From NCBI RefSeq assembly GCF_001598795.1, contig NZ_BCZP01000039.1, positions 1 through 32,000 on the forward strand: DNA of 32,000 nt, given 5' to 3'. Of the stretch, positions 1 to 20,199 are shown in pieces; position 1 is the first letter of the stretch; every line of letters begins with the position of its first letter. The notes under the pieces were generated by a model, which did no database searches, was not told the origin of the DNA, and worked only from the letters and a program-made list of their open reading frames with translations. A program made the translations under genes and the position numbers. Source of the DNA: Delftia acidovorans NBRC 14950 (GTDB taxonomy: Bacteria; Pseudomonadota; Gammaproteobacteria; Burkholderiales; Burkholderiaceae_C).

Positions 1-1
1 C

Positions 2-1342
2 CTTGGCGAAGACGGCCTGGTCGGCGGCCTGCTGGGCGGCCTGGTTCCGGGCGGCGGCACAGGCAGCGGCGACGGCCTTGTCACCACAGTGCAGGACACC
101 GTTGGCGACCTGCTCGGCGGCACGGCCGGCGCCCCTGTGGGCCAGGTGCTGGACGCGCTGATCAACCCCGACACCGGCGCACTGTCCGTGGTCACGAGCC
201 TGGTGGAAGGCGTGACCCAGGTCAACGGTGGTCCGCTGGGTGTGGTGACGGACCTGGCCAACGGCCTGACGCAGGTCCCGGGCCAGGCACTGCAGCCGGT
301 GATCGGCACCGTCAACGGCGTGCTGGCCGGCCTGACGGGCGGCGATGGCTTGCTGGGTGGCGTGGTCGGCGGTGACGGCGGCCTGCTGGGTGGCCTCACG
401 GGCGGACTGACGGGCGGCCTTGGTGGCGGCTCCGGCCTGGTCGGCGGCCTGCTCGATACGGTGGTCGGCGACAACGGCATCGTTGGCGGACTGCTGGGCG
501 GCGACGGCGGCCTGCTGGGCGGCCTCACTGGCGGACTGACGGGCGGCTCCGGCCTGGTCGGCGGCCTGCTCGACACGGTGGTGGGCGACAACGGCATCGT
601 TGGCGGACTGCTGGGCGGTGACGGCGGCCTGCTGGGTGGCCTCACGGGCGGACTCACTGGGGGCCTCACTGGCGGATCGGGCCTGGTCGGTGGCCTGCTG
701 AACACCGTGACGGGCGACAACGGCATCGTCGGCGGGGTGCTCAACACCGTGGCCGGTGACAACGGCGTCGTCAGCGGCGTGCTGGACACGGTGGCAGGCA
801 ACAACGGCATCGTCAGCGGCGTGCTCGACACCGTGGCCGGTGGCAGCGGCATCGTCAGCGGCGTGGTCGACACCGTGGCGGGTGACAACGGTGTCGTCAG
901 CGGGCTGGTGAACACCGTGGCCGGCGACAACGGTGTCGTCAGCGGACTGGTCAATACCTTGGCCGGCGACAACGGAATCGTCAGCGGCGTGGTCAACACC
1001 TTGGCCGGCGACAACGGAATCGTCAGCGGCGTGGTCAACACCGTGGCCGGCGACAACGGAATCGTCAGCGGCGTGGTCAACACGGTGGCCGGCAACAACG
1101 GCATCGTCAGCGGCCTGCTGGGTGGCGGCAGCAGCGGCGGCGGCCTGCTGGGCGGGCTGCTGGGGGGATCGTCCGGCGGCGGGCTGCTCGGTGGCCTGCT
1201 GGGTGGCACATCGCACGCGGCAGCGGCCTCGGTCGCCGAGCTGGATCCGATTGCCACCTCCATCAGCAGCCATGCCAGCAGCACGGCCGATGCAGCAGCC
1301 AGCGTGCTGACGCAGCAACTGCACCACAACACCCTGCTCTGA
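2..1342 (+). CDS. Gly-rich tandem-repeat protein, 5'-truncated by the window edge (possible secreted or surface fibre; candidate T1SS cargo)
   Basis: The frame of ORF 89..1342 stays open back to nt 2 and keeps the same Gly-rich composition (LGEDGLVGGLLGGLVPGGG...), so the GTG at 89 is probably internal. It has 39-aa and 14-aa repeat blocks. The last ~50 aa lack Gly and are rich in A/S/T (HAAAASVAELDPIATSISSHASSTADAAASVLTQQLHHNTLL). Confidence 0.7.
   Translation, partial: LGEDGLVGGLLGGLVPGGGTGSGDGLVTTVQDTVGDLLGGTAGAPVGQVLDALINPDTGALSVVTSLVEGVTQVNGGPLGVVTDLANGLTQVPGQALQPVIGTVNGVLAGLTGGDGLLGGVVGGDGGLLGGLTGGLTGGLGGGSGLVGGLLDTVVGDNGIVGGLLGGDGGLLGGLTGGLTGGSGLVGGLLDTVVGDNGIVGGLLGGDGGLLGGLTGGLTGGLTGGSGLVGGLLNTVTGDNGIVGGVLNTVAGDNGVVSGVLDTVAGNNGIVSGVLDTVAGGSGIVSGVVDTVAGDNGVVSGLVNTVAGDNGVVSGLVNTLAGDNGIVSGVVNTLAGDNGIVSGVVNTVAGDNGIVSGVVNTVAGNNGIVSGLLGGGSSGGGLLGGLLGGSSGGGLLGGLLGGTSHAAAASVAELDPIATSISSHASSTADAAASVLTQQLHHNTLL
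428..1117 (+). repeat. In-frame tandem repeats inside the Gly-rich CDS: about 2.5 x 117 bp (GSGLVGGLLDTVVGDNGIVGGLLGGDGGLLGGLTGGLTG), then 10 x 42 bp (V/L-N/D-T-V/L-A-G-D/N-N-G-I/V-V-S-G-V/L)
   Basis: Direct reading. The 42-bp units run from 698 to 1117. The three units at 950-1075 differ by only 1-2 nt from each other. Confidence 0.9.
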
Positions 1343-1348
1343 GCGGCC

Positions 1349-1368
1349 GCGGCGCCTGCGGGCGCCGC
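1349..1368 (+). terminator. GC-rich hairpin just after the repeat-protein stop codon (possible terminator or mRNA stabiliser, no U-tract)
   Basis: GCGGCGCC-tgcg-GGCGCCGC forms a perfect 8-bp stem 7 nt after the TGA at 1340-1342. It is followed by atccatcccc, so there is no T-run. Confidence 0.35.
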
Positions 1369-1424
1369 ATCCATCCCCTGCGCCGCCGCCCCACGGTGGC
1401 GGCGCACGTCCCAGGAGATCCTCC

Positions 1425-1949
1425 ATGTCACACACTTTCAGGCTGTGCACCATCGTGCTGCTGGCCGCAGGGCTGGCCGCCTGCGGATCCACCGCCACCA
1501 CCAGCACGCAGCGTTCCGAGCACCACTACGCCTTCGGCAAGGCCCCGGCACCAGCGCCGGCAAGCTCCGGCGTCGCGCCCGTGGTGGCCACCACGCAGGC
1601 CGACCAGCGCGGGCCCGCCAACGTCGCCCACATCGTCTACTTCGACTTCGACGCATACACCATCCGCAACAGCGACCGGGCCATCGTGGAAAGCCATGCT
1701 CAGTGGCTGCGCAGCAATCCCGGCCGCTCGGTGATGCTGCGCGGACATACGGACAGGCGCGGCGGCATCGAATACAACCTGGCGCTCGGCCAAAAACGTG
1801 CCGACGCGGTGCGCAACAGCCTGCAGCTGCTGGGCGTGAACCCGGCCCGCGTGGAGTCCGTCAGCTACGGCAAGGAGCGGCTGGCCGACGAAGGCGCGAG
1901 CGAAGAAGCCCACCAGCGCAACCGGCGCGTGGAATTCGACTACCGCTGA
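1425..1949 (+). CDS. Peptidoglycan-associated lipoprotein (Pal)-like OmpA-domain lipoprotein
   Basis: SD aggag lies 7 nt upstream of the ATG. Lipobox LAAC|G is in the signal peptide (MSHTFRLCTIVLLAAGLAACGS). The OmpA_C/Pal core is VYFDFDAYTIRNSD...GHTDRRGGIEYNLALGQKRADAV...SYGKERL...NRRVEF, closely parallel to E. coli Pal as I remember it. Confidence 0.9.
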   Translation: MSHTFRLCTIVLLAAGLAACGSTATTSTQRSEHHYAFGKAPAPAPASSGVAPVVATTQADQRGPANVAHIVYFDFDAYTIRNSDRAIVESHAQWLRSNPGRSVMLRGHTDRRGGIEYNLALGQKRADAVRNSLQLLGVNPARVESVSYGKERLADEGASEEAHQRNRRVEFDYR

Positions 1950-1986
1950 GCCGCCGCGCTCCGCATCCGCCTGCCGCCGGGCCGCC

Positions 1987-4900
1987 ATGAAGGAACAGAT
2001 CCGCACGCGGTCGGTGCACCGCAGCCCGGCGTCCCGTCCCCACGGGAAGAGCAGCCTCCCAATGACCCTGACCGAGGCCGAGAGCATGTTGTCGCAGCAA
2101 TTGGCAAATGGCCTGGAGTACCTGGCACGGCACATGGTGCTGCTGCCCGAACCCTACCCCGGCTGCATTCTTTTCTTCACGGTGTCGGCCGAGAACAAGG
2201 TTGCCTCCGTCTTCCACGTGCGCGCCACCACGCTGGAGGCTGCCTGGCGCGAGGGTGCGACACGCGTGCGCCAATGGGCCTGGGCCCGCAAGCGTGACGA
2301 GGTCGATCTGCGCATCGACTGGGCGCAGGACATCACGCCCCTGAAGGCGGACAGTCCGCTGCCGGACTGCAGCGCCTGGACCCAGGCGCCCATGCGCTCC
2401 CTGGCCCTGGCTGATGCCAGCCTGGAGCGTACGCAGCTGCTGCAGCCCCTGCTGCCAGATCCGCACCCGCTGGGCAGTGAAACAGGCAGCGCCCAACGGC
2501 CCCTGCACCCGCCCTGCCTGCTGCTGCACCTGCGCGGCATCTATATCAGCGGGGAGCAGCCCGCCCTGGCCGTGCCGCGCACCGACCCGCCCGAGCAGCG
2601 CCTTTGGCCCCACCTCGTGCCCGTGCACGCTGCGCTGCAGCAACTGCTGGCGCAGCAGGGCAAGGACGGAAGCTGGCCCGGTTGCGGGGATGTCTGCGAC
2701 CACCTGGGCGTGACCTACGCCCTGCTGCAGGCCCAGCGCCATGCGGGCAGCGCCGCGCTGGCGCAGGCCATTGCGCTGGCCGTGGACCATGTGGAGCAAC
2801 GGCTGCAGCCATTGCCCGGCGACTGTCTGCCCAGCGCGCTGGCCATGCTGGTGCTGGCCCGCCACCTGCGCAACAGCTTTGTCCTGGGGCCGGGAGCCGA
2901 CAGCCAGGCCCGCGCCCACATTCCGGCGCTGATGGACCCGCTGGCGGAAAGCCTGCTGTCCATGGCTGCCGCTTCGGCCAGCACCACCAAGGCTGCCGCC
3001 GCTGCCGCCAATGCCGCTGAAGCCGGCACACCCCGCTCCGGCCAGCCCATGCTGACCTGGGCCGAGCTGGCCATGCATGTCTATGCAAGCTCGCGCCCCC
3101 CCACCAGCGACAGCCCCACGCTGCGCGCGGCGCGCAGCGCCCTGCCCGACACGGCGGCCCTGCCTGCCGCCTTCCTGCAGGCCGCGCTGCCGCAGCTGCT
3201 GGGCATGGATGGCGGCAATGACGGCAATGGCGGCAATGGCGACGATGGCGACGATGGCGAAAGTATCGAGAAGGCAGGCGCCCTTTGTGCACGCTGGATA
3301 GGCATTGCCCTGGTCGAGAGCCTGCAGCTCGACGCAGGCCTGGAGCCGCAGCCCACCGACCTGCTGCGCCAATGGCAGATCAGCCTGCAGCGCCATCTGC
3401 AAGGCATGGCCCAGCGCGCCATCTGGCCTGAGCAGGCGCTGTACCTGCCGCCCGCCCGGCGCCGCCATGCAGCCTTTACCGATGGCAGCCTGCGCCAGGT
3501 ACTGCAGTCCCCGCGCGAAATCGCCTGGCTGCTGGCATCCAGCCTGGCAGGCCTGGAACTGCTGGACGCTCTGACCCAGGCACTGCGCGCGGCCACCAGC
3601 CATGCCGCTGCCGAATCCGGGGAAGACGCGCTGCCTGCGCAGGCAGGCCATGGCTTGAGCGCGGGTGCCAGCCCTGCCAAAGCTTCCCCGCCCTCGCCAT
3701 CACTCTCCCTCGCGTCGCGGGCCGATGAGACTGCGGGCCAGCCGGCTTTTCGGCCCACAGCGGGCTCCATGTACCCGCCCATGTCCTGGGACAGAGCTTC
3801 CCTGGCCGAACTGATGAACGGGTGCTGGCTGGATGCAACGACAGAGCCCGGCACAGATCCCAGCTCCGATAGCGGCACCGGCTGCGCGGGATTGGACGCC
3901 AGCCGCCTGCACCACCAGCCCGGCGCCGCCGTGCTGGTGCGGCGTGCGGGCATGGCCCTGGGCGTGCAGGCTGCGGCCCTGCCCACGCTGCGCGCCTCGG
4001 CGCTGATCAGCAGCAGCCCGCAGGGCCTGCTGGACCACGGCGTGCCGGTGCTGCATGTGCCTGATATGGAAGAGGGCCTGCGCAATCTGGCGCAGGCGGC
4101 CCGCCGCCGCATCCAGTCGCCCGTGGTCGCCGTCAGCGGCTGCGTGGGCAAGACCTCCACCCTGGGCATGATGCGCCAGTGCCTGCAGGACGGGGGAGAC
4201 GCGCGTGGCGATGCCCTGCTGTCCCAGGGCACGGCGCTGCAGATGATCAATTGGAGCGAGGCCTCGCCCTGCGCCCTGCTGGAGCTGCCATTGCAGGCAC
4301 TGCGTGCCGACCTGCCGCTGATTGACCCAGATATTCTGGTTATTACTAATCTTTCAATAAATAACACCCCCTATTCAGGGGAGTCCGAGCCCTCCGGACA
4401 GGCCGGTCTGTCCGGTGAAAGAAAATACGAAGCATTGCAGGAAGTGCTTGAAGCCATGCAGCTCATGCACAAAGGCAGTGCGCTGGTCACCGATCAGGAC
4501 ATAGGTGAAAACCCCAGTGTTATTGAGCATGCCAAACGCATGGGACTGCGCCTGATCACGTTTGGCCCCCATTGCAATGCACAGGTCCGTGAAATGGGGT
4601 TTCACAATGGAAATCTGCAAATAGGCATGGGCAGCCTGCGCCTGGGCATTTCCCTGCAATCCGACGGCCACCACATGGCACTCAATGCGCAGGCGGCCCT
4701 GGCGGCCCTGCATGCATTGGGCTATGCGCCCGCACAGGTGCAGGCCTCCCTGGCCCATTGGCAGCCCATGATCGGAGCCGGGCAGCCGCAGCTCCTGCCC
4801 AGTGGAATCTGCCTGCTGGACCACAGCCTGAGCAACCACTTACTGTCCATGACGGCTGCATTTTCCCAGCTGCAGTCGGTCGCTCCCCATGTGAGCAGAA

Positions 4901-5277
4901 GGCTGATCGTGCTGGCGGGCATACAGCCCGGCCACGCCAGCATCGACGCTGCGCAGCTGGCCCTGGAGCCGCTCGTGCGGGATGCCCAGGCCCGGCGCGT
5001 GCTGCTGTATGGGGAGCCGCTCAGGCCGCTGGCGGCAGCCTTGGGCGATCTTTTGCACGTCAATTGGTATGACGATCTGAATCAGCTGATTTGCTCGCTG
5101 CTGAGAACAACCCATAAAGGCGATACGGTTTTGTTGGCCGGCCGCGCCACAACCAATCTTGCCCTGGCGGCCGACGCCATACGGGATAGTTTCAGTGGCC
5201 ACGGGGGCCATTTAATAGCGTCTATTCAGGCTCCCTGCTTTGATCCACATCAAAAACAAATGAACATGCATTCTTGA
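1987..5277 (+). CDS. Large fusion protein: unknown ~630-aa N-terminal region plus a divergent MurF-like (Mur ligase family) C-terminal module
   Basis: A single open frame of 1096 aa with good high-GC codon usage in its first two thirds. The C-terminal part is colinear with MurF: GLDASRLHHQPGAAVLV, VPVLHVPDMEEGLRNLAQAARRR, P-loop VVAVSGCVGKTST, GHHMALNAQAALAALHALG and LLDHSLSNHLLSMTAAF. The start is uncertain (ATG 1987 or ATG 2062). Confidence 0.7.
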   Translation: MKEQIRTRSVHRSPASRPHGKSSLPMTLTEAESMLSQQLANGLEYLARHMVLLPEPYPGCILFFTVSAENKVASVFHVRATTLEAAWREGATRVRQWAWARKRDEVDLRIDWAQDITPLKADSPLPDCSAWTQAPMRSLALADASLERTQLLQPLLPDPHPLGSETGSAQRPLHPPCLLLHLRGIYISGEQPALAVPRTDPPEQRLWPHLVPVHAALQQLLAQQGKDGSWPGCGDVCDHLGVTYALLQAQRHAGSAALAQAIALAVDHVEQRLQPLPGDCLPSALAMLVLARHLRNSFVLGPGADSQARAHIPALMDPLAESLLSMAAASASTTKAAAAAANAAEAGTPRSGQPMLTWAELAMHVYASSRPPTSDSPTLRAARSALPDTAALPAAFLQAALPQLLGMDGGNDGNGGNGDDGDDGESIEKAGALCARWIGIALVESLQLDAGLEPQPTDLLRQWQISLQRHLQGMAQRAIWPEQALYLPPARRRHAAFTDGSLRQVLQSPREIAWLLASSLAGLELLDALTQALRAATSHAAAESGEDALPAQAGHGLSAGASPAKASPPSPSLSLASRADETAGQPAFRPTAGSMYPPMSWDRASLAELMNGCWLDATTEPGTDPSSDSGTGCAGLDASRLHHQPGAAVLVRRAGMALGVQAAALPTLRASALISSSPQGLLDHGVPVLHVPDMEEGLRNLAQAARRRIQSPVVAVSGCVGKTSTLGMMRQCLQDGGDARGDALLSQGTALQMINWSEASPCALLELPLQALRADLPLIDPDILVITNLSINNTPYSGESEPSGQAGLSGERKYEALQEVLEAMQLMHKGSALVTDQDIGENPSVIEHAKRMGLRLITFGPHCNAQVREMGFHNGNLQIGMGSLRLGISLQSDGHHMALNAQAALAALHALGYAPAQVQASLAHWQPMIGAGQPQLLPSGICLLDHSLSNHLLSMTAAFSQLQSVAPHVSRRLIVLAGIQPGHASIDAAQLALEPLVRDAQARRVLLYGEPLRPLAAALGDLLHVNWYDDLNQLICSLLRTTHKGDTVLLAGRATTNLALAADAIRDSFSGHGGHLIASIQAPCFDPHQKQMNMHS

Positions 5278-5376
5278 TTGAATAAAACTTATAGAGGGCT
5301 GTATATAACTCGCTACAGTGTTTGTGAAACGAGTACCTTTACATTTTGTAAAGATGCTTACTAAGCCCATCAGAAC
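5278..5376 (+). promoter_or_regulatory. AT-rich intergenic region, likely promoter region for the T1SS operon
   Basis: It is about 35% GC in a ~68% GC background. A possible -35 TTGAAT (5278-5283) sits 18 nt from TATATA (5302-5307). No strong SD precedes the ATG at 5377. The hexamer assignment is tentative. Confidence 0.35.
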
Positions 5377-7239
5377 ATGATCCGATACCTTCTTCCCCGT
5401 CAGTTGGCCAAGGCCACGGCGATGCCGTCGGGAACGGAGACGGTGGGGGCTTTTGCATCTGCCATCGCCGAGTCCTTCGACCGGGCTGCGCACCAGTTGC
5501 GCCGGGCTGGCTGGCTGTCGCTGCCCATCAGTCTGCTGGGCCTGCTGCCGTCCATCTTCCTGCTGCAGGTCTACAACCGCGTCATTGCGCGTGGCGGCAC
5601 CGCCACCCTCACGGCCATGGTGGCGGGCGTGCTGTTCTTCCTGGGCGTGGAATGGTGGCTGCGGCGCAGGCGCGCCCGCGCCCTGCGCGAAGCCGGCGCC
5701 ATGATCGACCGCGATGTGTCCCAGGCGCTGATGCACTCCATGCTGCGCCACCCGCTGGCCGCGCTGGAGCAGCGCTCCTCCAGCCAGTGGCTGCAGCTGT
5801 TCCGCGACGTGAGCGCCATGCGCTCGGGCATGTCCGGGGGCCTGGCGACCTCGCTGCTGGACCTGCCCATGGCCCTGCTGGCACTGGTCGTCATCGGCAT
5901 CATTGCCTGGCCCGTGCTGCCGGTGATTCTGGTGGCCATGCTCATCATGGGCGTGCTGGCCTGGTGGTGGGCCGACGAGGTGCGCAGCGGCCGCGTGGAG
6001 GAAATCGCCCAGGCCCGCATGCTGGACCGGGGCACGGCCGAGATCTGCAACGCCCGCGCCACGCTCAAGGTGCTGGGCTACGACGCCGCCGCACGCCAGA
6101 ACTGGCAAAGCGGCTATGACCGCTGGCTGGCCGAGAGCTTTGGCAAGAACGGCGAGATGGAAAACGCACGCGAGGCCAGCACCGTGCTGCTGACGCTGTT
6201 CTCCATTGCCGTGATCACCGTGGGCGCCATTGCCATCAATGCGCAGTGGATGAGCATCGGCAGCCTGATGGCCGTGAACCTGCTGTCGGGCAAGGCGCTG
6301 GGCCCCATCTCGCAACTGGCCAGCAACTGGCGCTCGCTGGCCCATGCCAACGAGGCCGCACGCCGCCTGCAGGCCGTGCTGGAGGAACCCGTCGAGGCCA
6401 TGACCGACACCGTGGACCTGCCCCGGCCCCAGGGCCGGCTGCGCCTGGACCAGGCAAGCTTCCACTACCCGGGCGGCCATGTGGCGCTGGAGCAGGCATC
6501 GCTGGAGATCGGCCCCGGCGGGCTGCACGCCATCGTGGGGCGCAACGGCGCCGGCAAGTCCACCCTGGCCAAGCTGCTGGCCGGCCTCTACCAGCCCACA
6601 CAGGGGCGCATCTTCATCGATGAATACGACATGGCCCAGTTCCCGCGCGCCGAACTGGGCCGCTGGATAGGCTGCCTGGCCCAGCAGGTGTACTGGTTCA
6701 GCGGCCCCATCGTGGACGGGCTGCGCATGGTCAACCCCGATGCCGACGACCACAAGATCGTCACCGCCTGCCAGATCTCGGGCGCGCACGGCTTCATCAG
6801 CCGCCTGCCCCAGGGCTACCAGACGGTGCTGGGCGAAGGCGGCGCGGGCCTGTCGGCCGGCGAGCTGCGCAAGCTGGCCCTGGCCCAGCTGTTCCTGCGC
6901 AACCCCTCGGTGCTGATCCTGGACGAGCCCAGCAACGACCTGGACTTCGAGAGCGAAACCACGCTGCTGCAGACGCTGCGGCAGATTGCGCTCAAGCACA
7001 CGGTCATCGTCGTCACGCACTCGCTGCGCGTGGCCTCCATGGCGCAGCATCTCTACCATGTGCGCGGCGACGGCGGCATCGAGCATGGCTCGCCCCAGTT
7101 GCTGCTGCCCCAGCTGTTCGGCTCGGCGCGCGAGCCTGCGGCTCCCGCAGCACCCGCTGCGTCCACAGCCCCCGCAACGCCGGCCGACCCGGCCCCGCAT
7201 GCCGATCACCCCGCCGTGGCGCAGGAGCTTGCCTCATGA
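5377..7239 (+). CDS. Type I secretion system permease/ATPase (PrtD/AprD-like ABC exporter, no N-terminal C39 or C39-like domain)
   Basis: A short cytoplasmic N-terminus leads into LLPSIFLLQVYNRVI (T1SS ABC hallmark LQVYDRVL-like). Walker A is GRNGAGKST, the signature is LSAGELRKLALAQ and Walker B is VLILDEPSNDLD. There is a Pro/Ala-rich C-terminal tail. Confidence 0.93.
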   Translation: MIRYLLPRQLAKATAMPSGTETVGAFASAIAESFDRAAHQLRRAGWLSLPISLLGLLPSIFLLQVYNRVIARGGTATLTAMVAGVLFFLGVEWWLRRRRARALREAGAMIDRDVSQALMHSMLRHPLAALEQRSSSQWLQLFRDVSAMRSGMSGGLATSLLDLPMALLALVVIGIIAWPVLPVILVAMLIMGVLAWWWADEVRSGRVEEIAQARMLDRGTAEICNARATLKVLGYDAAARQNWQSGYDRWLAESFGKNGEMENAREASTVLLTLFSIAVITVGAIAINAQWMSIGSLMAVNLLSGKALGPISQLASNWRSLAHANEAARRLQAVLEEPVEAMTDTVDLPRPQGRLRLDQASFHYPGGHVALEQASLEIGPGGLHAIVGRNGAGKSTLAKLLAGLYQPTQGRIFIDEYDMAQFPRAELGRWIGCLAQQVYWFSGPIVDGLRMVNPDADDHKIVTACQISGAHGFISRLPQGYQTVLGEGGAGLSAGELRKLALAQLFLRNPSVLILDEPSNDLDFESETTLLQTLRQIALKHTVIVVTHSLRVASMAQHLYHVRGDGGIEHGSPQLLLPQLFGSAREPAAPAAPAASTAPATPADPAPHADHPAVAQELAS

Positions 7240-8612
7240 GGGCCGGGCGCTACGACGACCTCCCCCTGGTGCTTCGCCAGTCAAGCGAAGCGCAGGCAGC
7301 CGTGCACGGCCAGCCGCCTGCGGACGCGTCCGGCGCAACGCCCCCCACCCCTGGCCGAACCGCCCTGGCGCGGGGCAAGTGGCTGCTCGTCATTCCCGTC
7401 GCCGCCCTGGTGGTCACCGGCCTGTTCTATCCGGTGGAGAACGTGGTGGTCGCCAGCGGCCAGGTCATCCCTTCCGACCGTGTGCAGACCGTGCAGCATC
7501 TGGAAGGCGGCATCGTCACCGCCGTCCATGTGCGCGAAGGCCAGGCCGTGACCCAGGGCCAGCCGCTGCTGGAAATCGACCTGGGCAGCAACAGCCTCAA
7601 CCTCGAACAGCTCACCGCCCGCATGGCCACGGCCCAGGCCGTCAAGGCGCGTCTGGGTGCGGAAAGCCAGGGCCGGCCGCTGCAGCGCACCGCCTTCCCC
7701 GCCGACCTGGACGCACAGGTGGTCCAGGCCGAACTGGGCGCCTTCTCGGCGCGCGCGCTGGAGCACCAGGGCAGCCTTGCCGCAGCCCAGGCCCAGCTGC
7801 AGCAGGCGCGCGGCGACGTGGCCCAGGTGCAGGCGCGCATCGAGGGGCTGGAGACCAATCTGCGCCTGCACCAGCAGGAGGCCTCCATTGCCGGCCAGCT
7901 CGCCTCCGAGCAGCTGATAGGCCAGCTTGAAGTGCTGGACAAGCAGCGGGCGCTGGAGCAGGTGCGGGCCGAGCTGGCTGCCTCGCGCCAGACGCTTTTC
8001 AGCAACCGCGCCAAGATCGAACAGGCCCAGGCCAAGCTGCAGGAGACCCAGGGCGCCTTCCGCCGCCGCGCCTCCGACGAGCTGGCCCAGACCGAACGCG
8101 AGCTGGCCAGCCTCAACGAAGACCTGGTCCGCGCCCGCACCCAGCGCACGCGCACGGCCGTGCTGGCGCCCACCAGCGGCTTCGTCAAGGGCCTGCGCAG
8201 CTCGGGCGCCGGTTGGGTGGTCAAGCCCGGCGAGCCCATCCTCGAAATCGTTCCGGACAAGGACGAAGTCATCGTCGAGGCGCGCCTGAGCCCCGCCGAC
8301 CGTGGCTATGTGCGCCCCGGCCAGGCCACCCGGGTGAAGATCTCGGCCTACGACTTCCTGCGCTACGGCTCGGTGCCCGGCCAGGTCACCCTGGTGGCGG
8401 CCGATGCCGACCGCGATCCCAACCTGGCCGACTCGCCCTCGTACTTCCGCATCCAGGCCAGCCTGGAGCAGCCCTGGGTGGGCCGCACCGACAACCGCAT
8501 CACCACCGGCATGCAGGCCGAACTCGACCTGCTGCTGGGCCACGAACCCTTTATCTGGTATTTGCTGCGGCCCGTGCTGCGCATCCAGAGCGAAGCCTTC
8601 CGGGAGCCCTGA
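7236..8612 (+). CDS. HlyD-family type I secretion membrane fusion (periplasmic adaptor) protein
   Basis: ATGA start/stop overlap with the ABC gene. It has a single N-terminal TM helix, the motif VQHLEGGIV...V.EGQ.V..GQPLLEID, a long coiled-coil middle region, and C-terminal APTSGFV...ARLSPADRGYVRPGQATRVKISAYDF. Confidence 0.93.
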   Translation: MRAGRYDDLPLVLRQSSEAQAAVHGQPPADASGATPPTPGRTALARGKWLLVIPVAALVVTGLFYPVENVVVASGQVIPSDRVQTVQHLEGGIVTAVHVREGQAVTQGQPLLEIDLGSNSLNLEQLTARMATAQAVKARLGAESQGRPLQRTAFPADLDAQVVQAELGAFSARALEHQGSLAAAQAQLQQARGDVAQVQARIEGLETNLRLHQQEASIAGQLASEQLIGQLEVLDKQRALEQVRAELAASRQTLFSNRAKIEQAQAKLQETQGAFRRRASDELAQTERELASLNEDLVRARTQRTRTAVLAPTSGFVKGLRSSGAGWVVKPGEPILEIVPDKDEVIVEARLSPADRGYVRPGQATRVKISAYDFLRYGSVPGQVTLVAADADRDPNLADSPSYFRIQASLEQPWVGRTDNRITTGMQAELDLLLGHEPFIWYLLRPVLRIQSEAFREP

Positions 8613-10348
8613 TGCCAGGCCGCCCGACCTCCCCTTCCATGGGCTGGCACGCCCGCTGCCACGCCCGGCTGCGCCAGCTGCTGGCCGCTGCCTGCTGCCT
8701 GTCCGCACTGCAGGCGCTGCAGGCCGCTGCCGCGCCTGTGGCTGCGGCGGACAGGGACCTTGATACGGACATCGGCATGGTTGCCGCAGCCGCACCCGCA
8801 CCCGCATCCACATCCGCAAACACGGCCGCAGCCGCACCGGCCCCTGTGGTCCTGCGCCTGGCCCAGCACCTCACGCCCGGCACCCTGGCCAGCGACGGCG
8901 GGCAGCGCCGCCTGCTCGATGCCCTCTACGCCCTGATCGACGAATACCCCGACGTGCGCAAGGCGCGCGCCGCGCTGGAATCGGCCGGGCATGACGTGAA
9001 CACCGCGCGCGGCGCGCGCTGGCCCACCTTCAAGGTGGGTACCAACACGGGCGATGCCAAGCTGCGCCGGGGCCGCGAGTCCTACACCGCCGTCAACGCC
9101 GAAGTGCGCATGGCCCTGCTGGACGGCGGCGCCATCGGCGCGGGCATACGCTCGGCCGAATCGCAGGAGGCGGCCCAGGGCAGCGTGCTCTACGGCACGC
9201 GCCAGAACGTGCTGCTGGAGGCGCTGACCGCCCTGCTGGAGCTGCACCGCTTCGAGGACAAGGCCCGCGTGGCGGCCGAGTCGGCGCGCATCATCGGCCA
9301 GCTCGCGCGCATCGAGGAGCGCCGCGCCGAACTGGGCGCCGTGGGCCGCAACGACCTGCGCCAGGCCGCCTCGCGCCAGGCCGGCGCCCTGGCCCAGCAG
9401 CATGCGCTGGAGTCGCAGCGCATGGATGCGCAGGCCCGCTTCACGCGCTACTTCGGCTTCACGCCCCAGCCCGGCTGGCTGCCCCAGCTCAACGTGCCCG
9501 TGCAATGGATGCCGGCCAACGAGGACTCGGCCCTGCAGGCCTCCGAAACCGTCAGCCCCGAGCTGCAGGAGATGGAGCAGCAGATCGAGAAGGCCCGCGC
9601 CGAAGTGGACCGCAGCAAGTCCCAGCGCTTTCCCACGCTGGCCGCCGTGGTGGCCCACACGCGCGACCCCAGCGGTGTGCTCTATGCCGAGGGCACGCGC
9701 TACGGCGTGGAGCTGAGCTGGAACTTCGGCAACGGCTTCGAGCTGCGCGACCGCATCCTCAAGGCCATCAACGAACTGCAGGCCCAGGAAGCGCAGCAGG
9801 AAACCGTGCGCCGCCAGGTGCGCGAAACCGCCTCCGCCGCCTGGGGACGCACCCAGTCCGGCCGCCAGCGCGAAAGCCAGCTGGCCGACGCCGTGCGCGA
9901 GGCGCGCGCCGCCTTCGAGGGGCGCCGCCGCCTGCTCGAAGTCGGGCGCGGCAGCCTGGCCCAGGTGCTGGACGCCCAGCTGGACATGCAGCGCCTGCTG
10001 CTGGACGAGGCCGACGCCATCTACGACCAGCGCATCAACGAACTGCGCCTGGCACGCACCACCGGCCGCCTCCTGCCGCAGGACCCGCCCGATCAATGGC
10101 TGAACGCGCTGTTCACCCCGCAAAAACCGATTCCGGCAGGTGGTGGTGCGCCAGGCACTGCCCCCATGGACGAGCCCGGGAACGCGCCCGGCCCTGCGCC
10201 CTCGCGCAGCCGCCCCGAACCCCAGGACGCTGCCGTGGCCACCCTGTCCGCCAGCGCCATGCCCCAACGAATACAGCTGCGCCTTGAGCAGCAGTTGCGC
10301 CCCGTTTCAGACGCTTTTCCAACCACCGCCTTGCGACAGCAGTGGTGA
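8612..10348 (+). CDS. TolC-family outer membrane factor of the T1SS
   Basis: TGATG overlap with the HlyD gene. It has a signal-like N-terminus and two OEP-type repeats (…ARAALESAGHDVNTARGARWPTF… and …ARAEVDRSKSQRFPTLAAVV…). A Pro/Ala-rich C-terminal extension of about 90 aa follows. Confidence 0.88.
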   Translation: MPGRPTSPSMGWHARCHARLRQLLAAACCLSALQALQAAAAPVAAADRDLDTDIGMVAAAAPAPASTSANTAAAAPAPVVLRLAQHLTPGTLASDGGQRRLLDALYALIDEYPDVRKARAALESAGHDVNTARGARWPTFKVGTNTGDAKLRRGRESYTAVNAEVRMALLDGGAIGAGIRSAESQEAAQGSVLYGTRQNVLLEALTALLELHRFEDKARVAAESARIIGQLARIEERRAELGAVGRNDLRQAASRQAGALAQQHALESQRMDAQARFTRYFGFTPQPGWLPQLNVPVQWMPANEDSALQASETVSPELQEMEQQIEKARAEVDRSKSQRFPTLAAVVAHTRDPSGVLYAEGTRYGVELSWNFGNGFELRDRILKAINELQAQEAQQETVRRQVRETASAAWGRTQSGRQRESQLADAVREARAAFEGRRRLLEVGRGSLAQVLDAQLDMQRLLLDEADAIYDQRINELRLARTTGRLLPQDPPDQWLNALFTPQKPIPAGGGAPGTAPMDEPGNAPGPAPSRSRPEPQDAAVATLSASAMPQRIQLRLEQQLRPVSDAFPTTALRQQW

Positions 10349-10453
10349 AGTGAGAAGCGGCAAGTGAGGTTTCCCGTGCAGCGGCCGGCTTCTGCCCATC
10401 GCCAGCCGCCGCCATCGAAAACGATGGGCTTTTGCAACCGAAAGGACGATGCC

Positions 10454-10630
10454 ATGACCGACATCATCAAGAACTTCTGGAAAGACGAAGAAGGCGCCAC
10501 CGCCATCGAGTACGGCTTGATCGCCGGCCTCATCGCCGTGGGGATCGTGGTGGGCGCCACCGCGCTCGGCACCAACCTGAATGGGCTGTTCACCCGGATC
10601 GCCACCAAGCTCACCGGCTTCGTTCCCTGA
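10454..10630 (+). CDS. flp: Flp-family type IVb pilin (copy 1)
   Basis: 58 aa: MTDIIKNFWKDEEG|ATAIEYGLIAGLIAVGIVV... This is the canonical Flp motif with a G|ATAIEYGLIA cleavage site. SD aaagga lies upstream. I chose an internal ATG within the longer track ORF 10364..10630. Confidence 0.9.
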   Translation: MTDIIKNFWKDEEGATAIEYGLIAGLIAVGIVVGATALGTNLNGLFTRIATKLTGFVP

Positions 10631-10721: not shown

Positions 10722-10898
10722 ATGACCGAAATGATCAAGAACTTCTGGAAAGACGAGGAAGGCGCCACCGCCATCGAATACGGGCTGATCGCCGGCCTGA
10801 TTGCCGTGGGCATCGTCGTGGGCGCCACCGCGCTGGGTACCGATCTGAACGGATTGTTCAGCCGGCTTGCCACCAAGCTCAACGGACTTGCCCCCTGA
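10722..10898 (+). CDS. flp: Flp-family type IVb pilin (copy 2)
   Basis: 58 aa: MTEMIKNFWKDEEG|ATAIEYGLIAGLIAVGIVV... It differs from copy 1 at 8 of 58 positions, in the leader and the C-terminal third. The leader DNA is the same as upstream of copy 1. Confidence 0.9.
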   Translation: MTEMIKNFWKDEEGATAIEYGLIAGLIAVGIVVGATALGTDLNGLFSRLATKLNGLAP

Positions 10899-10900: not shown

Positions 10901-11470
10901 ATGGAGTGGACCTCGCTATGGCTGTGCGTCTGCATCACATGGCTCGCAACGATTGCGGTCATGGATCTGCGCATCCGGCGCGTGCGCAACTGGATGGTGC
11001 TGCTCGGCCTGGCCACAGGCGCGGCGGCACTGGCCAGTGGGGCGCAGCCGTTCCAGGTCTCGGCCTGGAACGCGCTGGCCGGACTGCTGGCGGGGTTTGT
11101 CGTGCTGCTTCCTTTCTATGCACTGCGCTGGATGGGAGCGGGCGACGTCAAGTTCGGCGCGGTCGCAGGGCTGTGGTTCGGGCTGAGCTTCGACCTGCTG
11201 CTGATCTGGACCGGCGGCAGCCTGCTGGCCGGCCTGCACGGCCTTCTGGTGCTGTCATTGCGCCACCTGAGCCACAGCCCCACCGGCCTGTGGCTGCAGG
11301 CCCGGCTGCCCCTGGCCTGGGCGGCCCGCCTGGCACCCCTGGGCGCGGCGTCTCAGCCCGCAGGCGCCACCGATGGACCGCGCCAGCCCCAGCGCTCCAT
11401 TCCCTATGCCGGCTACATGGCCATTGCGGCCATCGCCCTGGCCTGGCGCCACAGCCAGCCGCTTGCCTGA
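10901..11470 (+). CDS. cpaA: Prepilin peptidase CpaA/TadV (A24 aspartic peptidase)
   Basis: A polytopic membrane protein with the two catalytic-Asp contexts VMDLRIRRVRN and MGAGDVKF. It lies immediately after the flp genes. Confidence 0.88.
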   Translation: MEWTSLWLCVCITWLATIAVMDLRIRRVRNWMVLLGLATGAAALASGAQPFQVSAWNALAGLLAGFVVLLPFYALRWMGAGDVKFGAVAGLWFGLSFDLLLIWTGGSLLAGLHGLLVLSLRHLSHSPTGLWLQARLPLAWAARLAPLGAASQPAGATDGPRQPQRSIPYAGYMAIAAIALAWRHSQPLA

Positions 11471-11558
11471 ACGGGAGATGCCCATGCAGATCGCTTTCCC
11501 CTCGCCACGCACCACACGGCCCGGCCCCGCCGCAAGCCGCCGCTGTGCGCTATCCGGA

Positions 11559-11603
11559 CGCTTTCCTGCCCTGGCGGACCCTCTGCGCCATGGCAGGAAA
11601 GCG
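11559..11603 (+). other. Strong intercistronic stem-loop between cpaA and cpaB
   Basis: CGCTTTCCTGCC (11559-11570) pairs perfectly with GGCAGGAAAGCG (11592-11603). After one C/T mismatch, TGGCG/CGCCA adds 5 bp around a 9-nt loop. A competing pairing is GCCCTGGCG (11568-11576) with CGCCAGGGC (11602-11610). There is no U-tract. Confidence 0.6.
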
Positions 11604-11662
11604 CCAGGGCAGCCCCCATGCCTGAACACCGTCGCCACCCACTTGCACCAGGAGCCCCAGCC

Positions 11663-12709
11663 ATGAACCTCACCAAGATTCTTGCCGGACTGTTGGTTGG
11701 GCTGGCCATCGTGCTCGCAGGCCTTGCCTGGCTGCTGGGCAGCCAGCCCGCACGCCCCGTGGCCCAGCCCTCACCGACCGCCTCGGCGCAGCCGGCCCCA
11801 GAGCCCGTGCCGCAGCATGCCGTCGTGGTCGTGGCCCAGGCCATTGCCGCAGGCCAGCGCATCGGCAGCGAGGATGTGAAGCTGGCCCAGCTGCCCGCCC
11901 CCGTACCCGGCAGCTTTGCCGCGACCGATGACGTGCTGGGCCGCACCACGCTGATGGCGCTCACCCCGGGCACTCCGCTTTTCGAGCAGCAACTGCTCAG
12001 CGGCCTGGCCCTGCAGCTGGAGCCGGGACAGCGCGCCCTGGCGATTGCCATCCGGGAGCAGATGGCCGCGGGCCACCATGTGCGCCCCGGCGACTTCGTG
12101 GATGTCTACTTCACGCTGGACGGCAAGTCCGACCAGGCACCCGTGGACGCGCAGACCCGGCTGCTGCTGGCGCGCAGCCGCGTGCTGGCCTACGGCTCCG
12201 GCAGCGTGGAACGCCCACCCATGCCGGCCGTCCAGCGCCAGGCGCAGCAGGACAAGGAATCGGCCGGCTCGTCGCTGCGCCGCGCCAGCGCTGCGGATCA
12301 GACCGGCCAGCGCCCTGAGAACGTGCAATCGGCCGTGCTGGCCGTGCCGCTGGACGATGTGGAGCGCCTCACCCTGGCCGAGAAATTCGGCCAGCTCACC
12401 TTGGCGCTGCGCAACCCGGACGACCTGTCCGTGCCCGATCCCAAGCTCTTCGCCGCCCTGCCCAGCGCACTGCAGCCGGTGGCGGGCCGCCTCCGGAAAG
12501 ACCAGGCACTGGAGGGTGCAGACCGCGCCTTCGCCGGCCTTCGCATGCAGGACCTGGCCACCGGCGCCGACGCCAAGAACATCCGCAAGCCTGCCGCCCA
12601 GCCCATGACGGCCTTCGCACCCGCCGTGCGGCCGCCGCCGCAGCGGGCCCCGCGCGAACGCACCGTGGAGCTGCATAACGGAGCCGCGGTGCAGATGGTG
12701 AACTACTGA
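11663..12709 (+). CDS. cpaB: Flp pilus assembly protein CpaB/RcpC
   Basis: SD aggag lies 8 nt upstream of ATG 11663. It has an N-terminal TM anchor (MNLTKILAGLLVGLAIVLAGLAWLL), a SAF-like segment (VVVVAQAIAAGQRIGSEDVKLAQLP) and a position upstream of the secretin. Confidence 0.85.
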   Translation: MNLTKILAGLLVGLAIVLAGLAWLLGSQPARPVAQPSPTASAQPAPEPVPQHAVVVVAQAIAAGQRIGSEDVKLAQLPAPVPGSFAATDDVLGRTTLMALTPGTPLFEQQLLSGLALQLEPGQRALAIAIREQMAAGHHVRPGDFVDVYFTLDGKSDQAPVDAQTRLLLARSRVLAYGSGSVERPPMPAVQRQAQQDKESAGSSLRRASAADQTGQRPENVQSAVLAVPLDDVERLTLAEKFGQLTLALRNPDDLSVPDPKLFAALPSALQPVAGRLRKDQALEGADRAFAGLRMQDLATGADAKNIRKPAAQPMTAFAPAVRPPPQRAPRERTVELHNGAAVQMVNY

Positions 12710-12734
12710 AAACACACAACAAGAGGGAGATGCC

Positions 12735-14249
12735 ATGAAGTGCAAGAACATCTCGACGGCCGGAGCAACCCCGCTGCAGCGCGCGGTCTGGACACTGTGC
12801 GGCAGCATGGCCTTGCTGGCATTGCCGCCAGCGGTGTCGGCGCCTGCGGACACCGCTGCCGTCCAAGGCATGCACAACCCCGGCGCCGGGGACATGCCCT
12901 TTGGCGACTCCCTGCAGCTGGTGGCCGGACGCCAGCACCTGATGCCGCTGGCCAGTACTCCGGGCCGCATCGCCGTGGGCGACCCCAATGTGCTGGACGT
13001 GAAACTGCTGCGCGCCACGCCGGGCTCCGGCGCCAGTGCCGGCTCCGGCTCCGGCTCCGGCGGAACCGAGCTGCTGCTCACGCCCAAGGCCCAGGGCAGC
13101 ACCACGTTGGTGGTGTGGCCCCAGAAAGGTGGCGCACCCCAGCGCTGGGAGGTCCAGGTCCGCGGCCAGCACCTGCTGCTGGAAAAGCGCCTGACCTCGG
13201 TTCCAGAACATGCCCAGGCCGTGGCCGAACTGCGCCAGTACGCGCCCGCCCAGACGCTGCTGGTGGACAACGCGCAGATCGACGTCAAGAGCAACACCGT
13301 CCAGGTGGACGTGCAGGTGGTGGAGTTCAAGAAATCCGCGATGAAGCGCATCGGCGTCAACATCTACAGCGGCGGGCGCAACAACCAGGGCTTCAGCTTC
13401 GGCAGCTTCAGCCCCGGCGTGGTGGGCAGCATCAGCACCAATACCAACGGCACGGGGACAGGGACGGGAACGGGCAATACCGGCTCGGGCGGCACGGGAG
13501 GCACGGGAGGCTCGGGCTCTGGCGGCGTGTCCAACAACACCTCGTCGGCCATTGCCAGCGCCATGAGCCTGGTGATGACCTTCGGCAAGGCCTTCAGCGG
13601 CGCCGGCATCGTCACGCAGCTGAGCATCCTCGAAGGCAACGGCATGGCGCGCGTGTTGGCCCGGCCTACCCTGCTGGCCCAGACCGGCCAGAACGCAAGC
13701 TTCCTGGCCGGCGGCGAGCTGCCGATCCCCGTGCCCGCGCGCGACGGCAACATCGCCATCCAGTACAAGGAATTCGGCATCAAGCTACAGCTGACGCCCA
13801 CCATCCTTTCGGACGATCGCATCGCCCTGAAGGTCTCGCCCGAGGCCAGCGACCTGGACTTCAACAGCGGCGTGACCATCAGCGGCGTCACCGTGCCCGC
13901 CATCCGCACGCGCCGCGCCGACACCTCGGTGGAGCTGGCCGATGGCGAGAGCTTCGTCATCGGCGGGCTGGTCAGCCGCGCCACCACCTCCAACGTCAGC
14001 AAGGTGCCGGTGCTGGGCGATCTGCCCATCCTGGGCACCTTCTTCAAGAACCTCAACTACACGCAGGAAGAGTCCGAGCTGGTGATCATCGTCACCCCGC
14101 GCCTGGTCCACCCGCTTCCCGCCAGCACCAATCTCGAAGCCCTGCTGCCCGGTGCGCAATCCGAGCAGCGCAACGCCGGCAAGGTCTGGCTGCCCTACCT
14201 CGCCGGCGGAATGAGCACCCAGACCGCCGTACCCGGTTTCTCGTACTGA
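12735..14249 (+). CDS. cpaC: Tad secretin CpaC/RcpA
   Basis: Signal peptide, BON/N-domain and a secretin core: ARVLARPTLLAQTGQNASFLAGGELPIP...VPVLGDLPILGTFFKN...ELVIIVTPRLV. Confidence 0.93.
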   Translation: MKCKNISTAGATPLQRAVWTLCGSMALLALPPAVSAPADTAAVQGMHNPGAGDMPFGDSLQLVAGRQHLMPLASTPGRIAVGDPNVLDVKLLRATPGSGASAGSGSGSGGTELLLTPKAQGSTTLVVWPQKGGAPQRWEVQVRGQHLLLEKRLTSVPEHAQAVAELRQYAPAQTLLVDNAQIDVKSNTVQVDVQVVEFKKSAMKRIGVNIYSGGRNNQGFSFGSFSPGVVGSISTNTNGTGTGTGTGNTGSGGTGGTGGSGSGGVSNNTSSAIASAMSLVMTFGKAFSGAGIVTQLSILEGNGMARVLARPTLLAQTGQNASFLAGGELPIPVPARDGNIAIQYKEFGIKLQLTPTILSDDRIALKVSPEASDLDFNSGVTISGVTVPAIRTRRADTSVELADGESFVIGGLVSRATTSNVSKVPVLGDLPILGTFFKNLNYTQEESELVIIVTPRLVHPLPASTNLEALLPGAQSEQRNAGKVWLPYLAGGMSTQTAVPGFSY

Positions 14250-14253
14250 CGAC

Positions 14254-15801: not shown

Positions 15802-15808
15802 ACGCACC

Positions 15809-17127
<1,319 letters not shown>

Positions 17128-17131
<4 letters not shown>

Positions 17132-18090: not shown

Positions 18091-18144
18091 ACCCATGACA
18101 GCACAGGCACAGGCCCACCCATCCGTCTGCGCAAGGAGCCACGC

Positions 18145-19149: not shown

Positions 19150-19151
19150 GC

Positions 19152-20189: not shown

Positions 20190-20199
20190 GGAGCACGAC

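Follow-up and report, generated by a model that had tools for sequence, protein, structure and literature searches.

What is a type I secretion system (T1SS) doing directly behind genes for a glycine-rich repeat protein, a peptidoglycan-binding lipoprotein and a protein with the fold of a cell-wall ligase? The question is raised by the 5' end of contig NZ_BCZP01000039.1 of Delftia acidovorans NBRC 14950 (assembly GCF_001598795.1), of which positions 1 to 32,000 were analyzed; this 32,000-nucleotide stretch, with a GC content of about 70%, is referred to below as the window. A first-pass annotation had reported six same-strand genes at positions 2-10348, and gene and domain calls recovered all of them on the plus strand, in the order Gly-rich repeat protein (hereafter the cargo), Pal paralogue, accessory protein with a MurF-like domain, ATP-binding cassette (ABC) exporter, membrane fusion protein (MFP) and outer membrane factor (OMF) (Table 1). 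On balance, we consider it probable that this block is the 5' arm of a surface-attachment supercluster of the Comamonadaceae, namely a sigma-54-controlled, Tad-linked T1SS adhesin or fibre module, and the link between cargo and T1SS is the strongest element of this explanation.

The gene order is conserved far beyond chance. A profile of the MurF-like protein, searched against one genome per species, returned 11 loci, all in Comamonadaceae. The six-gene order followed by cpaA, cpaB and cpaC was found in Delftia, Comamonas terrae, C. composti, C. testosteroni, Lampropedia, Corticibacter and Acidovorax, with CpaA, CpaB and CpaC encoded directly after the OMF wherever those loci extend far enough, and in Comamonas this included metagenome-assembled genomes (MAGs). 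In Variovorax, where the ABC homologues are 55-60% identical, V. paradoxus carries the same six-gene block (ABC 57%) with a convergent Tad locus. In total, the order is kept in Delftia, Comamonas, Acidovorax, Corticibacter, Lampropedia and Variovorax, at least six genera, and every flank that was read has a Tad/Flp locus beside the block. When metagenomes were scanned with a profile representing the cargo N-terminal domain (N-domain), 80 loci were obtained; in all 27 that contained the module and enough downstream sequence, the cargo gene was followed by those of the Pal paralogue, accessory and ABC, and then of MFP and OMF to the extent that the contig covered them. Conservation across genomes was one of the checks that the first-pass annotation had set for its proposal of an undescribed module, and co-conservation in six or more genera and in 27 metagenome loci, together with a text search that found no paper linking Mur ligase, type I secretion and adhesin, upholds the proposal. 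Fortuitous adjacency of unrelated same-strand genes deserves almost no credence: it is refuted by an order kept in these genera and metagenome loci at protein identities down to 36-57%, and by the survival of that order when the neighboring Tad locus is inverted.

The exceptions are few. Five orphan cargo copies of 1031-1413 aa (L052, L053, L055, L057 and L068) have the same N-domain, helix and tail as the other cargos and lie without adjacent Pal, accessory or T1SS genes; one of them, L068, shares its contig with a complete module (L084). The orphan cargos L055 and L057 were also observed to lie about 4 kb downstream of a sigma-54 activator homologue. Cargo, Pal paralogue and accessory were absent beside the ABC genes of Hydrogenophaga crassostreae (47% identity) and of a Rhodospirillaceae MAG (38% identity), so these two set the bounds of the module within the set of ABC relatives examined.

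Because the cargo gene is incomplete in the window, its N-terminus was supplied by locus L002 (assembly GCA_000741825.1, contig KN046795.1), in which window position 1 corresponds to position 8577 and which is 100% identical to window positions 1-600 over the 600 aligned bases compared. The full-length Delftia cargo has 1638 aa. A Sec signal in the missing part would have counted against export by this T1SS, as the first-pass annotation had pointed out, and the complete protein has none, with no Lys or Arg among its first 25 aa and no h-region. From N- to C-terminus, the cargo consists of an N-domain of about 110 aa (GVQIVRNGETL...GDKIIVP...ALF...GGTQATL), an invariant hydrophobic Gly-zipper helix (AGGSVLSDFLLAGLIGAGGVGLIAA in Delftia, with a Kyte-Doolittle hydropathy of 1.92, and 1.56 for the equivalent helix in Variovorax), a linker in which PTNPTNPTD repeats fill about 240 aa, a 118-aa module in several copies, 11-aa GGDGGLLGGVL repeats, 14-aa repeats and a Gly-free tail, and its composition is highly acidic, Gly-rich and of low complexity. 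The 14-aa repeats match Pfam PF21300 LbR_Ice_bind (E = 8.4e-15, 55 bits against a cut-off of 30), and their predicted fold is a beta-roll or beta-solenoid, placed immediately ahead of the tail; apart from this match, only a sub-threshold match to CheW was obtained for the full-length protein at E <= 0.1. Ice binding was considered and rejected as a function of these repeats, as the match reflects repeat geometry (NxVxG heptads) and the host is a mesophile.

Comparison among cargos separates what is kept from what varies. The N-domain, the Gly-rich repeat body and the helix AGGSxLxDFLLAGLxGAG recur in all 29 distinct cargos (800-1740 aa); those that are complete also carry a Gly-free tail containing SVL(T)...LH..LL. 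The linker, in contrast, switches between about 80 PTN/PTD triplets in Delftia and the L034 lineage and a long run of DA/DS dipeptides in the Variovorax type (compared at L002 5593-6195 and L018 ~3440-3950), so that its length and disorder, not its sequence, seem to be selected. It is conceivable that the Thr-rich linker could be a glycosylation target of the family 4 glycosyltransferase (GT4) encoded in the locus. A Gly-free C-terminal tail had been noted in the first-pass annotation, and the last 44 aa indeed contain no Gly. The tail is kept across genera, and even in the orphan paralogues, while the repeats vary; it occurs in two related types, one (..SVLTQQLHHNTLL) in Delftia, Comamonas and Acidovorax and the other (..SVLTPVTNILHGLLG) in the Variovorax type, and is a candidate for an uncleaved T1SS secretion signal. 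A variable linker combined with a kept N-domain, helix and repeat body and two related tails is indirect evidence for a substrate family that would be recognized C-terminally by its cognate T1SS. A homologue search with the cargo N-terminus returned fragments of the same protein only, the word-index method failing on repetitive sequence. The cargo gene adjoins the T1SS genes in 27 of the 27 metagenome loci and in all genome loci in which the downstream flank is covered, so the identification of the Gly-rich protein as the cargo is probable.

The three T1SS genes are translationally coupled through the ATGA and TGATG overlaps already read by the first-pass annotation (ABC/MFP at 7236-7239; MFP/OMF at 8610-8614). 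The exporter matches Pfam ABC_membrane (E = 1e-18) and ABC_tran (E = 6e-26). It had been assigned to the PrtD type, which stands as far as the architecture is concerned, there being no C39 domain; its sequence, however, is nearer to the LssB/LapB subfamily (363 bits with TIGR03375 LssB versus 318 bits with TIGR01842 PrtD, both below the equivalog cut-offs). Only about 36 aa precede its membrane domain, and the alignment starts at position 147 of the LssB model, indicating that neither a C39 nor a CLD domain is present. The MFP passes its family model (TIGR01843, 327.8 bits, cut-off 208.65), and the OMF contains two Pfam OEP repeats (E = 1e-50), falls below the cut-off of TIGR01844 (129.8 against 225 bits) and has N- and C-terminal extensions. 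The C-terminal extension reaches 80 aa past the TolC core (window 10100-10348), and its motif ..LQLRLEQQL...W recurs in other genera. A further observation at the T1SS genes concerns Variovorax, in which a 64-aa open reading frame (ORF) with one hydrophobic segment lies between the accessory and ABC genes (L018 9726-9920); it was rejected as an alternative substrate because it has no Delftia counterpart.

These features bear on an explanation in which the cargo is not a T1SS substrate at all. The helix would then be a signal-anchor and the cargo an inner-membrane protein whose giant remaining domain is periplasmic or spans the envelope, and the T1SS would export another substrate or serve the Tad system as an efflux or assembly device. 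The hydropathy of the Delftia helix (1.92) and the acidic residues after it, which suggest an N-in topology, would fit this, as would an exporter without a CLD and a cargo without RTX repeats. However, the C-terminal tail is kept in all cargos including the orphan copies, cargo and T1SS remain strictly adjacent over a wide divergence, and the block holds no conserved gene for an alternative substrate; moreover, we know of no periplasmic precedent for more than 1400 aa of Gly/Asp beta-solenoid repeats. We regard a signal-anchored, non-secreted cargo as improbable and infer that the adjoining T1SS exports it.

The gene directly 3' of the cargo gene in every module locus encodes the Pal paralogue, a predicted outer-membrane lipoprotein (lipobox LAAC|G) with a Pfam OmpA domain (E = 3.5e-23) and an intact peptidoglycan-contact motif, GHTDRRGGIEYNLALGQKRADAV. 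It narrowly missed the Pal equivalog TIGR02802 (122.6 bits, cut-off 125.35), scored 105 against 261 bits with NF008067, and lies outside any tol-pal cluster, its neighbors being T1SS and cargo genes, not tolQRAB or ybgF. The first-pass annotation had considered peptidoglycan-themed proteins not to be standard T1SS accessories. For peptidoglycan binders this premise was too strong, because an OmpA-like protein is encoded in the bpfA T1SS adhesin operon of Shewanella (PMC3672883) and SiiA of the Salmonella SPI-4 SiiE system is a peptidoglycan-binding T1SS subunit (10.1101/641415).

The Pal paralogue also helps to weigh a second alternative, in which the T1SS does export the cargo, which is then released as a matrix, hydrogel or lubricant for Tad-dependent motility or aggregation. 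Such a polymer would draw on the same evidence for the cargo-T1SS link, and the acidic, Gly-rich, low-complexity composition would suit it; a release system of the LapG/LapD type would not be required for a protein that is never retained, and the tad locus of V. paradoxus EPS serves swarming and is repressed in biofilms (PMC7494200). However, the N-domain and helix are the most conserved parts of the cargo, which is hard to explain for a free polymer, and the Pal paralogue fits a load-bearing anchor better. Release is therefore rather unlikely in our judgment, and we favor a cargo that would be retained at the surface.

The accessory is the most unusual member of the block. In AlphaFold models it comprises an N-terminal alpha/beta domain, a helical domain and a three-domain MurF fold. 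The first two form a conserved core (mean predicted local distance difference test score 79.5, predicted template modelling (TM) score 0.81) that had no match among Pfam and NCBIfam models at E <= 10, and the helical domain gave weak Foldseek matches to the alpha/alpha toroids GH76, AprG and cellobiose epimerase (E = 0.06-0.7, TM ~0.46). The protein has no signal peptide or membrane segment and would therefore act in the cytoplasm. The family is narrow, with 22 clusters in an index of 5.8 billion proteins and 43 representatives among 1.84 billion proteins. In more distant relatives the same N-terminal alpha/beta domain, with a helical domain after it, is fused to PGA_cap and GT4, which hints at a glycan or nucleotide-sugar context; the neighbors of one of them (P0058: N-domain, toroid, PGA_cap, GT4) included none that was informative on its 6-kb contig. 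A second copy of the accessory N-terminal part was observed in the L034-L038 lineage, between two TPR/NTF2 paralogues upstream of the cargo gene (~6700-7530); these loci also carry a short accessory downstream of pal.

The C-terminal part of the accessory resembles MurF in its three-domain Mur ligase fold, which is its best structural match (Foldseek to PaMurF, E = 9e-16; PaMurF and EcMurF together, E = 1e-15; to 4cvm and 1gg4, E ~1e-15, with TM to target 0.5-0.65), and by sequence (phmmer to 4cvk, E = 3e-9), and the P-loop is kept in the Delftia type. It differs in being fused to a 600-aa unrelated N-terminal region, in being dispensable in several lineages, and in lying in a T1SS block and not in a dcw cluster, and it scored well below the family cut-offs (TIGR01143, 74.3 against 288.6 bits; Pfam Mur_ligase_C, 25.1 against 28.4). 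Catalytic motifs have been lost in a complementary fashion. The Delftia/Comamonas type keeps the P-loop lysine (K722, in GCVGKTS) and the Asn of ITNxxxAH, and has lost the His of that motif, the GR arginine, DDSYNANP and GDMxELG; the Variovorax type has lost the P-loop lysine (GSGTAGAT, GSGAGSST) and both the Asn and the His, and keeps the GR arginine, DDSYNANP (as DETYDANP) and GDMxELG (LGDMQELG). At least nine loci, spread over both subfamilies, have no MurF domain at all (L014, L015-L017, L034-L038, L060 and L097); their short accessory forms retain the core only, and the rest of the module is kept wherever the contig covers it. Because of this complementary motif loss and repeated domain loss, the MurF-like module appears to be a pseudo-enzyme that is being lost rather than the seat of a conserved catalytic step; it would be a degenerating pseudo-ligase and at most a ligand-binding domain.

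These losses speak against the earlier suggestion of a MurF-like ligase that acts on the fibre, either modifying it or joining it to the cell wall. In its strongest form, the suggestion is that an active amide ligase modifies the secreted fibre or couples it to peptidoglycan or its precursors, with the Pal paralogue completing the wall anchoring. The true three-domain MurF fold speaks for it, as do the residues that are invariant in the Delftia/Comamonas type (the P-loop GxxGK(T/S) and the family-specific Q933, P934 and H946) and a peptidoglycan theme nearby, which comprises the Pal paralogue and a YkuD gene upstream in the Delftia-Comamonas clade. Nevertheless, the metal-binding His, the GR arginine, DDSYNANP and GDMxELG are gone from the Delftia type, as are the P-loop lysine and the TN..H motif from the Variovorax type, and the loci listed above dispense with the entire domain while the module is otherwise intact where covered. 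An accessory without signal peptide or membrane segment could not act directly on the wall, and the YkuD pair is not conserved in Variovorax. An active ligase is consequently highly improbable, and under our preferred explanation the accessory would contribute through its core.

The cargo gene has a predicted, near-consensus sigma-54 promoter of the -24/-12 type, arguing for sigma-54 control. The element TGGCATGCATGTTGCA lies at L002 4908-4923, about 80 nt 5' of the cargo ATG and about 3.6 kb upstream of window position 1, and equivalent sites are present at loci L011, L012 and L018, namely in C. composti (TGGCACGCAAGTTGCG), C. testosteroni (TGGCACGCTTGTTGCT) and Variovorax (CGGCACGCTAGTTGCC). 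Scored against a consensus with -24 GG and -12 GC in TGGCAC-N5-TTGC spacing, the sites of the four genomes have at least 9 or 10 of 11 matches and lie ~35-95 nt upstream of the cargo ATG; the background of such sites in these loci is 2.4e-5 per nt, giving a joint chance of ~3e-10 for four. The only zero-mismatch match in the window, TGGCACGCTTGTTGCA, is of the same type and precedes a gene pair encoding a stand-alone paralogue of the cargo N-domain and an EAL-domain protein. The enhancer-binding protein encoded at 24150-25559 has no recognized receiver domain and, like its equivalent in Variovorax L018, is encoded beside tadG; it is a candidate activator of the cargo promoter. A sigma-70 scan of this 70% GC DNA gave nothing useful, and no riboswitch or other RNA family was found in the window or in L002 (Rfam).

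Two perfect GC hairpins, of 8 bp and 12 bp, occupy the cargo-pal intergenic region ahead of an AGGAGA ribosome-binding site, and the region folds with a minimum free energy of -52.6 kcal/mol (z = -3.5). A strong hairpin 3' of the cargo stop occurs in seven lineages, with differing sequence and stems of 8 to 14 bp, and a U-tract after the cargo-pal hairpins is absent. The arrangement resembles that of hlyA-hlyB, and is consistent with attenuation or mRNA stabilization that would favor cargo over machinery.

The paralogue gene directly abuts the EAL gene. Its product shares 49% identity over 90 aa with the cargo N-domain (BLASTP, E = 7e-25) and is without the hydrophobic helix. In the translated EAL protein, a putative cyclic di-GMP (c-di-GMP) phosphodiesterase or receptor, the DDFGTG loop reads DDIVPR. 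The order response regulator-histidine kinase, paralogue-EAL, GT4-enhancer-binding protein-TadG recurs in the Delftia-type metagenome loci L040-L051; the metagenome scan did not find the paralogue-EAL pair in other genera. Judged from its gene content, the pair ties the module to c-di-GMP signaling, and suggests that the cargo N-domain is an interaction module with a cytoplasmic partner.

The six genes had been described as a compact block; they do stand in order, yet not in isolation, since the cluster that has them at its 5' end spans ~30 kb, lies mostly on one strand and goes on with a complete Tad/Flp pilus locus and regulators (Table 1). Flp pilin, prepilin peptidase, RcpC/CpaB, secretin, TadZ/A/B/C and pseudopilins are all present. 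Between the OMF stop and the first flp gene (window 10395-10445), a hairpin CCATCG-AAAA-CGATGG is followed by GCTTTTGC; it may be a weak terminator that splits the T1SS and flp transcription units. An ORF of 903 aa at 24158-26869 is composite: its first half is an out-of-frame read of the sigma-54 activator, the true frame of which lies inside 23262-25559, and only 25640-26869 encodes the GT4 part. The plus-strand ORFs 26871-28424 and 28431-29090 are shadow ORFs of the minus-strand EAL/paralogue pair. On the other side of the cargo gene, L002 carries a divergent two-gene pair (1690-4589, minus strand), of which one gene encodes a YkuD L,D-transpeptidase domain with an NTF2-like (Cds6_C) C-terminus and the other a TPR plus NTF2-like protein. 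This pair lies beside the cargo gene in Delftia, C. composti, C. testosteroni and the L034-L038 lineage.

Table 1. Positions, strands and supporting evidence of features in the 32,000-nucleotide window.
Feature	Position	Strand	Evidence or remark
Gly-rich cargo, C-terminal 446 aa	2-1342	+	ORF translation; full gene L002:5002-9918
About ten 14-residue repeats of the cargo, VNTVAGDNGIVSGV	701-1114	+	TRF: period 42 nt, 9.9 copies, 87% matches
Gly-free cargo tail, 44 aa (TSHAAAASVAELDPIATSISSHASSTADAAASVLTQQLHHNTLL), ends QQLHHNTLL	1208-1339	+	Sequence conservation
Cargo-pal intergenic region, two hairpins	1343-1424	+	RNA folding
Pal paralogue lipoprotein	1425-1949	+	Lipobox, Pfam OmpA
Accessory, 1096 aa	1987-5277	+	Alternative starts 2062 or 2086
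Accessory conserved core: alpha/beta (LPEPYPGCILFF...RQWAWA...LRIDW) and helical domain	2062-3621	+	AF2
MurF-like domain of accessory	3760-5277	+	Foldseek, phmmer, motif alignment to PaMurF
T1SS ABC exporter, 620 aa	5377-7239	+	Pfam ABC_membrane, ABC_tran
MFP, HlyD family	7236-8612	+	TIGR01843
OMF, TolC-like, 578 aa	8612-10348	+	Pfam OEP
Two tandem Flp pilin genes	10454-10630, 10722-10898	+	Pfam Flp_Fap E = 4e-20, 1e-18
Tad machinery: CpaA/TadV, CpaB/RcpC, secretin, CpaE-like, CpaF ATPase, TadB, TadC	10901-24114	+	
Tad machinery, further members: TPR (TadD-like), DUF3613, two TadE-like, TadG	10901-24114	+	
Sigma-54 enhancer-binding protein, start approximate	24150-25559	+	Pfam Sigma54_activat E = 2e-60, HTH_8
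GT4 glycosyltransferase	25640-26869	+	
EAL-domain protein	26946-28400	-	Pfam EAL E = 2.3e-35
Stand-alone paralogue of cargo N-domain, ~181 aa	28401-28946	-	BLASTP
Sigma-54 -24/-12 promoter, TGGCACGCTTGTTGCA	29035-29050	-	Consensus scan
Histidine kinase	29247-30659	+	Pfam HisKA, HATPase_c
Sigma-54-dependent response regulator	30644-31990	+	Pfam Response_reg, Sigma54_activat, HTH_8

Taken together, these features can be arranged into a possible mechanism for the adhesin or fibre module. The sigma-54 promoter would drive the gene of a giant non-RTX Gly/Leu/Asp-repeat protein, with the GC hairpin after it, and the downstream genes would supply the Pal-paralogue lipoprotein, the cytoplasmic accessory and a dedicated ABC-MFP-OMF exporter. 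The T1SS would recognize the Gly-free tail and export the cargo C-terminus first, whereupon the 11- and 14-residue Gly/Asp-rich repeats would fold into extracellular beta-solenoid fibre segments. The N-domain and Gly-zipper helix would stay behind and hold the cargo on the cell, and the low-complexity linker (PTN here, DA in Variovorax) would be a spacer through or beyond the export channel. The Pal paralogue would tie the loaded export site to peptidoglycan, in parallel to SiiA and the OmpA-like gene of the bpfA operon, and the accessory may be a chaperone, docking or gating factor in the cytoplasm that works via its N-terminal alpha/beta and helical part. Tad/Flp pili and the adhesin module, probably sharing regulators, would serve one surface-behavior program.

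The N-terminus of the cargo may end up in either of two arrangements, a periplasmic plug as in LapA, or a cytoplasmic or inner-membrane tether with the linker in the tunnel. The N-domain bears a resemblance to LapA-type retention modules, a putative homology for which no family model gave a match. An elaborate form of the second arrangement would have the cargo never fully released: the N-domain would remain cytoplasmic and the helix at the ABC/MFP, a linker of 170-260 aa would fill the MFP-TolC tunnel and the Pal paralogue would act as a brace, while the accessory core would hold or gate the N-domain, the pseudo-MurF would sense a nucleotide or peptidoglycan precursor, and, in Delftia, the sigma-54-induced, translationally EAL-coupled paralogue would be a c-di-GMP-linked decoy competing for the partner of the N-domain. 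We consider this full scheme a long shot.

A number of observations weigh against the adhesin or fibre explanation. RTX nonapeptides (GGxGxDxUx, HemolysinCabind) gave no match in the full-length cargo at E <= 0.1, the repeat periods being 11 and 14 aa; the N-domain matched no Pfam or NCBIfam model, including the retention module, FecR and the BapA prefix, at E <= 10; and the exporter is without the CLD typical of giant-adhesin exporters. T1SS substrates do not usually have a hydrophobic helix some 165 aa into the chain, and this one might be a Sec/YidC signal-anchor. The fold assignment of the accessory helical domain is weak (Foldseek E = 0.06). No sigma-54 site was found before the flp genes, so co-regulation of the pilus is not supported. 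Finally, the tad locus of V. paradoxus EPS is needed for swarming and down-regulated in biofilm (PMC7494200), and in view of these data "adhesin" may be the wrong functional label.

Comparison with known systems places the module near, but not within, the Lap group (LapA/LapBCE/LapD-LapG of P. fluorescens; MapA, BrtA, FrhA and DvhA), the mechanism of which is summarized in PMC10197612. As in that group, the gene of a giant repetitive protein lies beside a dedicated ABC-MFP-OMF; the protein starts with a conserved N-terminal element, continues with a Gly/Ala-rich stretch and carries its signal region at the C-terminus; the exporter has LssB/LapB as its nearest subfamily; and there is a c-di-GMP link, provided here by the EAL protein whose gene abuts that of the N-domain paralogue. 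On the other hand, the Delftia cargo has no RTX nonapeptides, BIg-type repeats or retention-module match, the ABC has no CLD, and the module has a hydrophobic helix, a long low-complexity linker, a pseudo-MurF accessory and a predicted sigma-54 promoter. Pfam scans of the window genes and of three genes upstream of the cargo in L002 found no LapG protease or LapD receptor. The module thus falls outside the RTX/LapA class, lacking RTX repeats, retention module, LapG/LapD and CLD, yet by analogy it probably works along similar lines.

Other systems share single features. SiiE/SiiCDF with SiiAB is likewise a T1SS adhesin operon with a peptidoglycan-binding OmpA/MotB-like subunit (10.1101/641415); SiiA, however, resembles MotB, resides in the inner membrane and has the proton channel SiiB as its partner, whereas the Delftia binder is a Pal-type outer-membrane lipoprotein without a MotA-like partner. 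The bpfA operon also starts with the adhesin gene, followed by T1SS genes, and has an OmpA-like gene and c-di-GMP-linked control (PMC3672883). It differs in its RTX/Bap adhesin and LapG/LapD-like partners and in having neither a MurF-like accessory nor linkage to Tad. The Tad/Flp and BapA loci of P. aeruginosa lie apart. There the PprAB two-component system co-regulates Flp pili and the BapA T1SS adhesin (10.1101/639112), with a regulon that includes CupE fimbriae (PMC3510237), so that, as proposed here, Tad/Flp pili and a giant T1SS adhesin are deployed together; in Delftia, by contrast, the adhesin/T1SS block is contiguous with the Tad locus and the cargo promoter is of the sigma-54 type. 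The cargo family, the accessory family and the organization of the locus appear to be new, as the searchable literature has no description of any of them.

Dedicated T1SS adhesin systems play a central part in the formation of biofilms, and Delftia, Comamonas, Acidovorax and Variovorax are common rhizosphere, wastewater and opportunistic-pathogen genera. The well-studied T1SS adhesins are RTX or Bap-type proteins under LapD/LapG, and the Delftia-type module would represent a second design that is widespread in Comamonadaceae, with a non-RTX cargo bearing an anchor-like N-element, a CLD-less ABC, a Pal-type brace, a cytoplasmic accessory with a decaying MurF, sigma-54 control and physical fusion to a Tad locus. 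The recruitment of a housekeeping cell-wall enzyme fold and its later degradation to a pseudo-enzyme should be tractable to study in the accessory. If a cargo that is never released and an EAL-linked decoy proved true, the logic of retention and release would be unlike that of LapD/LapG. The supercluster also provides a testable link between pilus- and adhesin-mediated surface behavior, and targets for the study of aggregation in Delftia and swarming in Variovorax.

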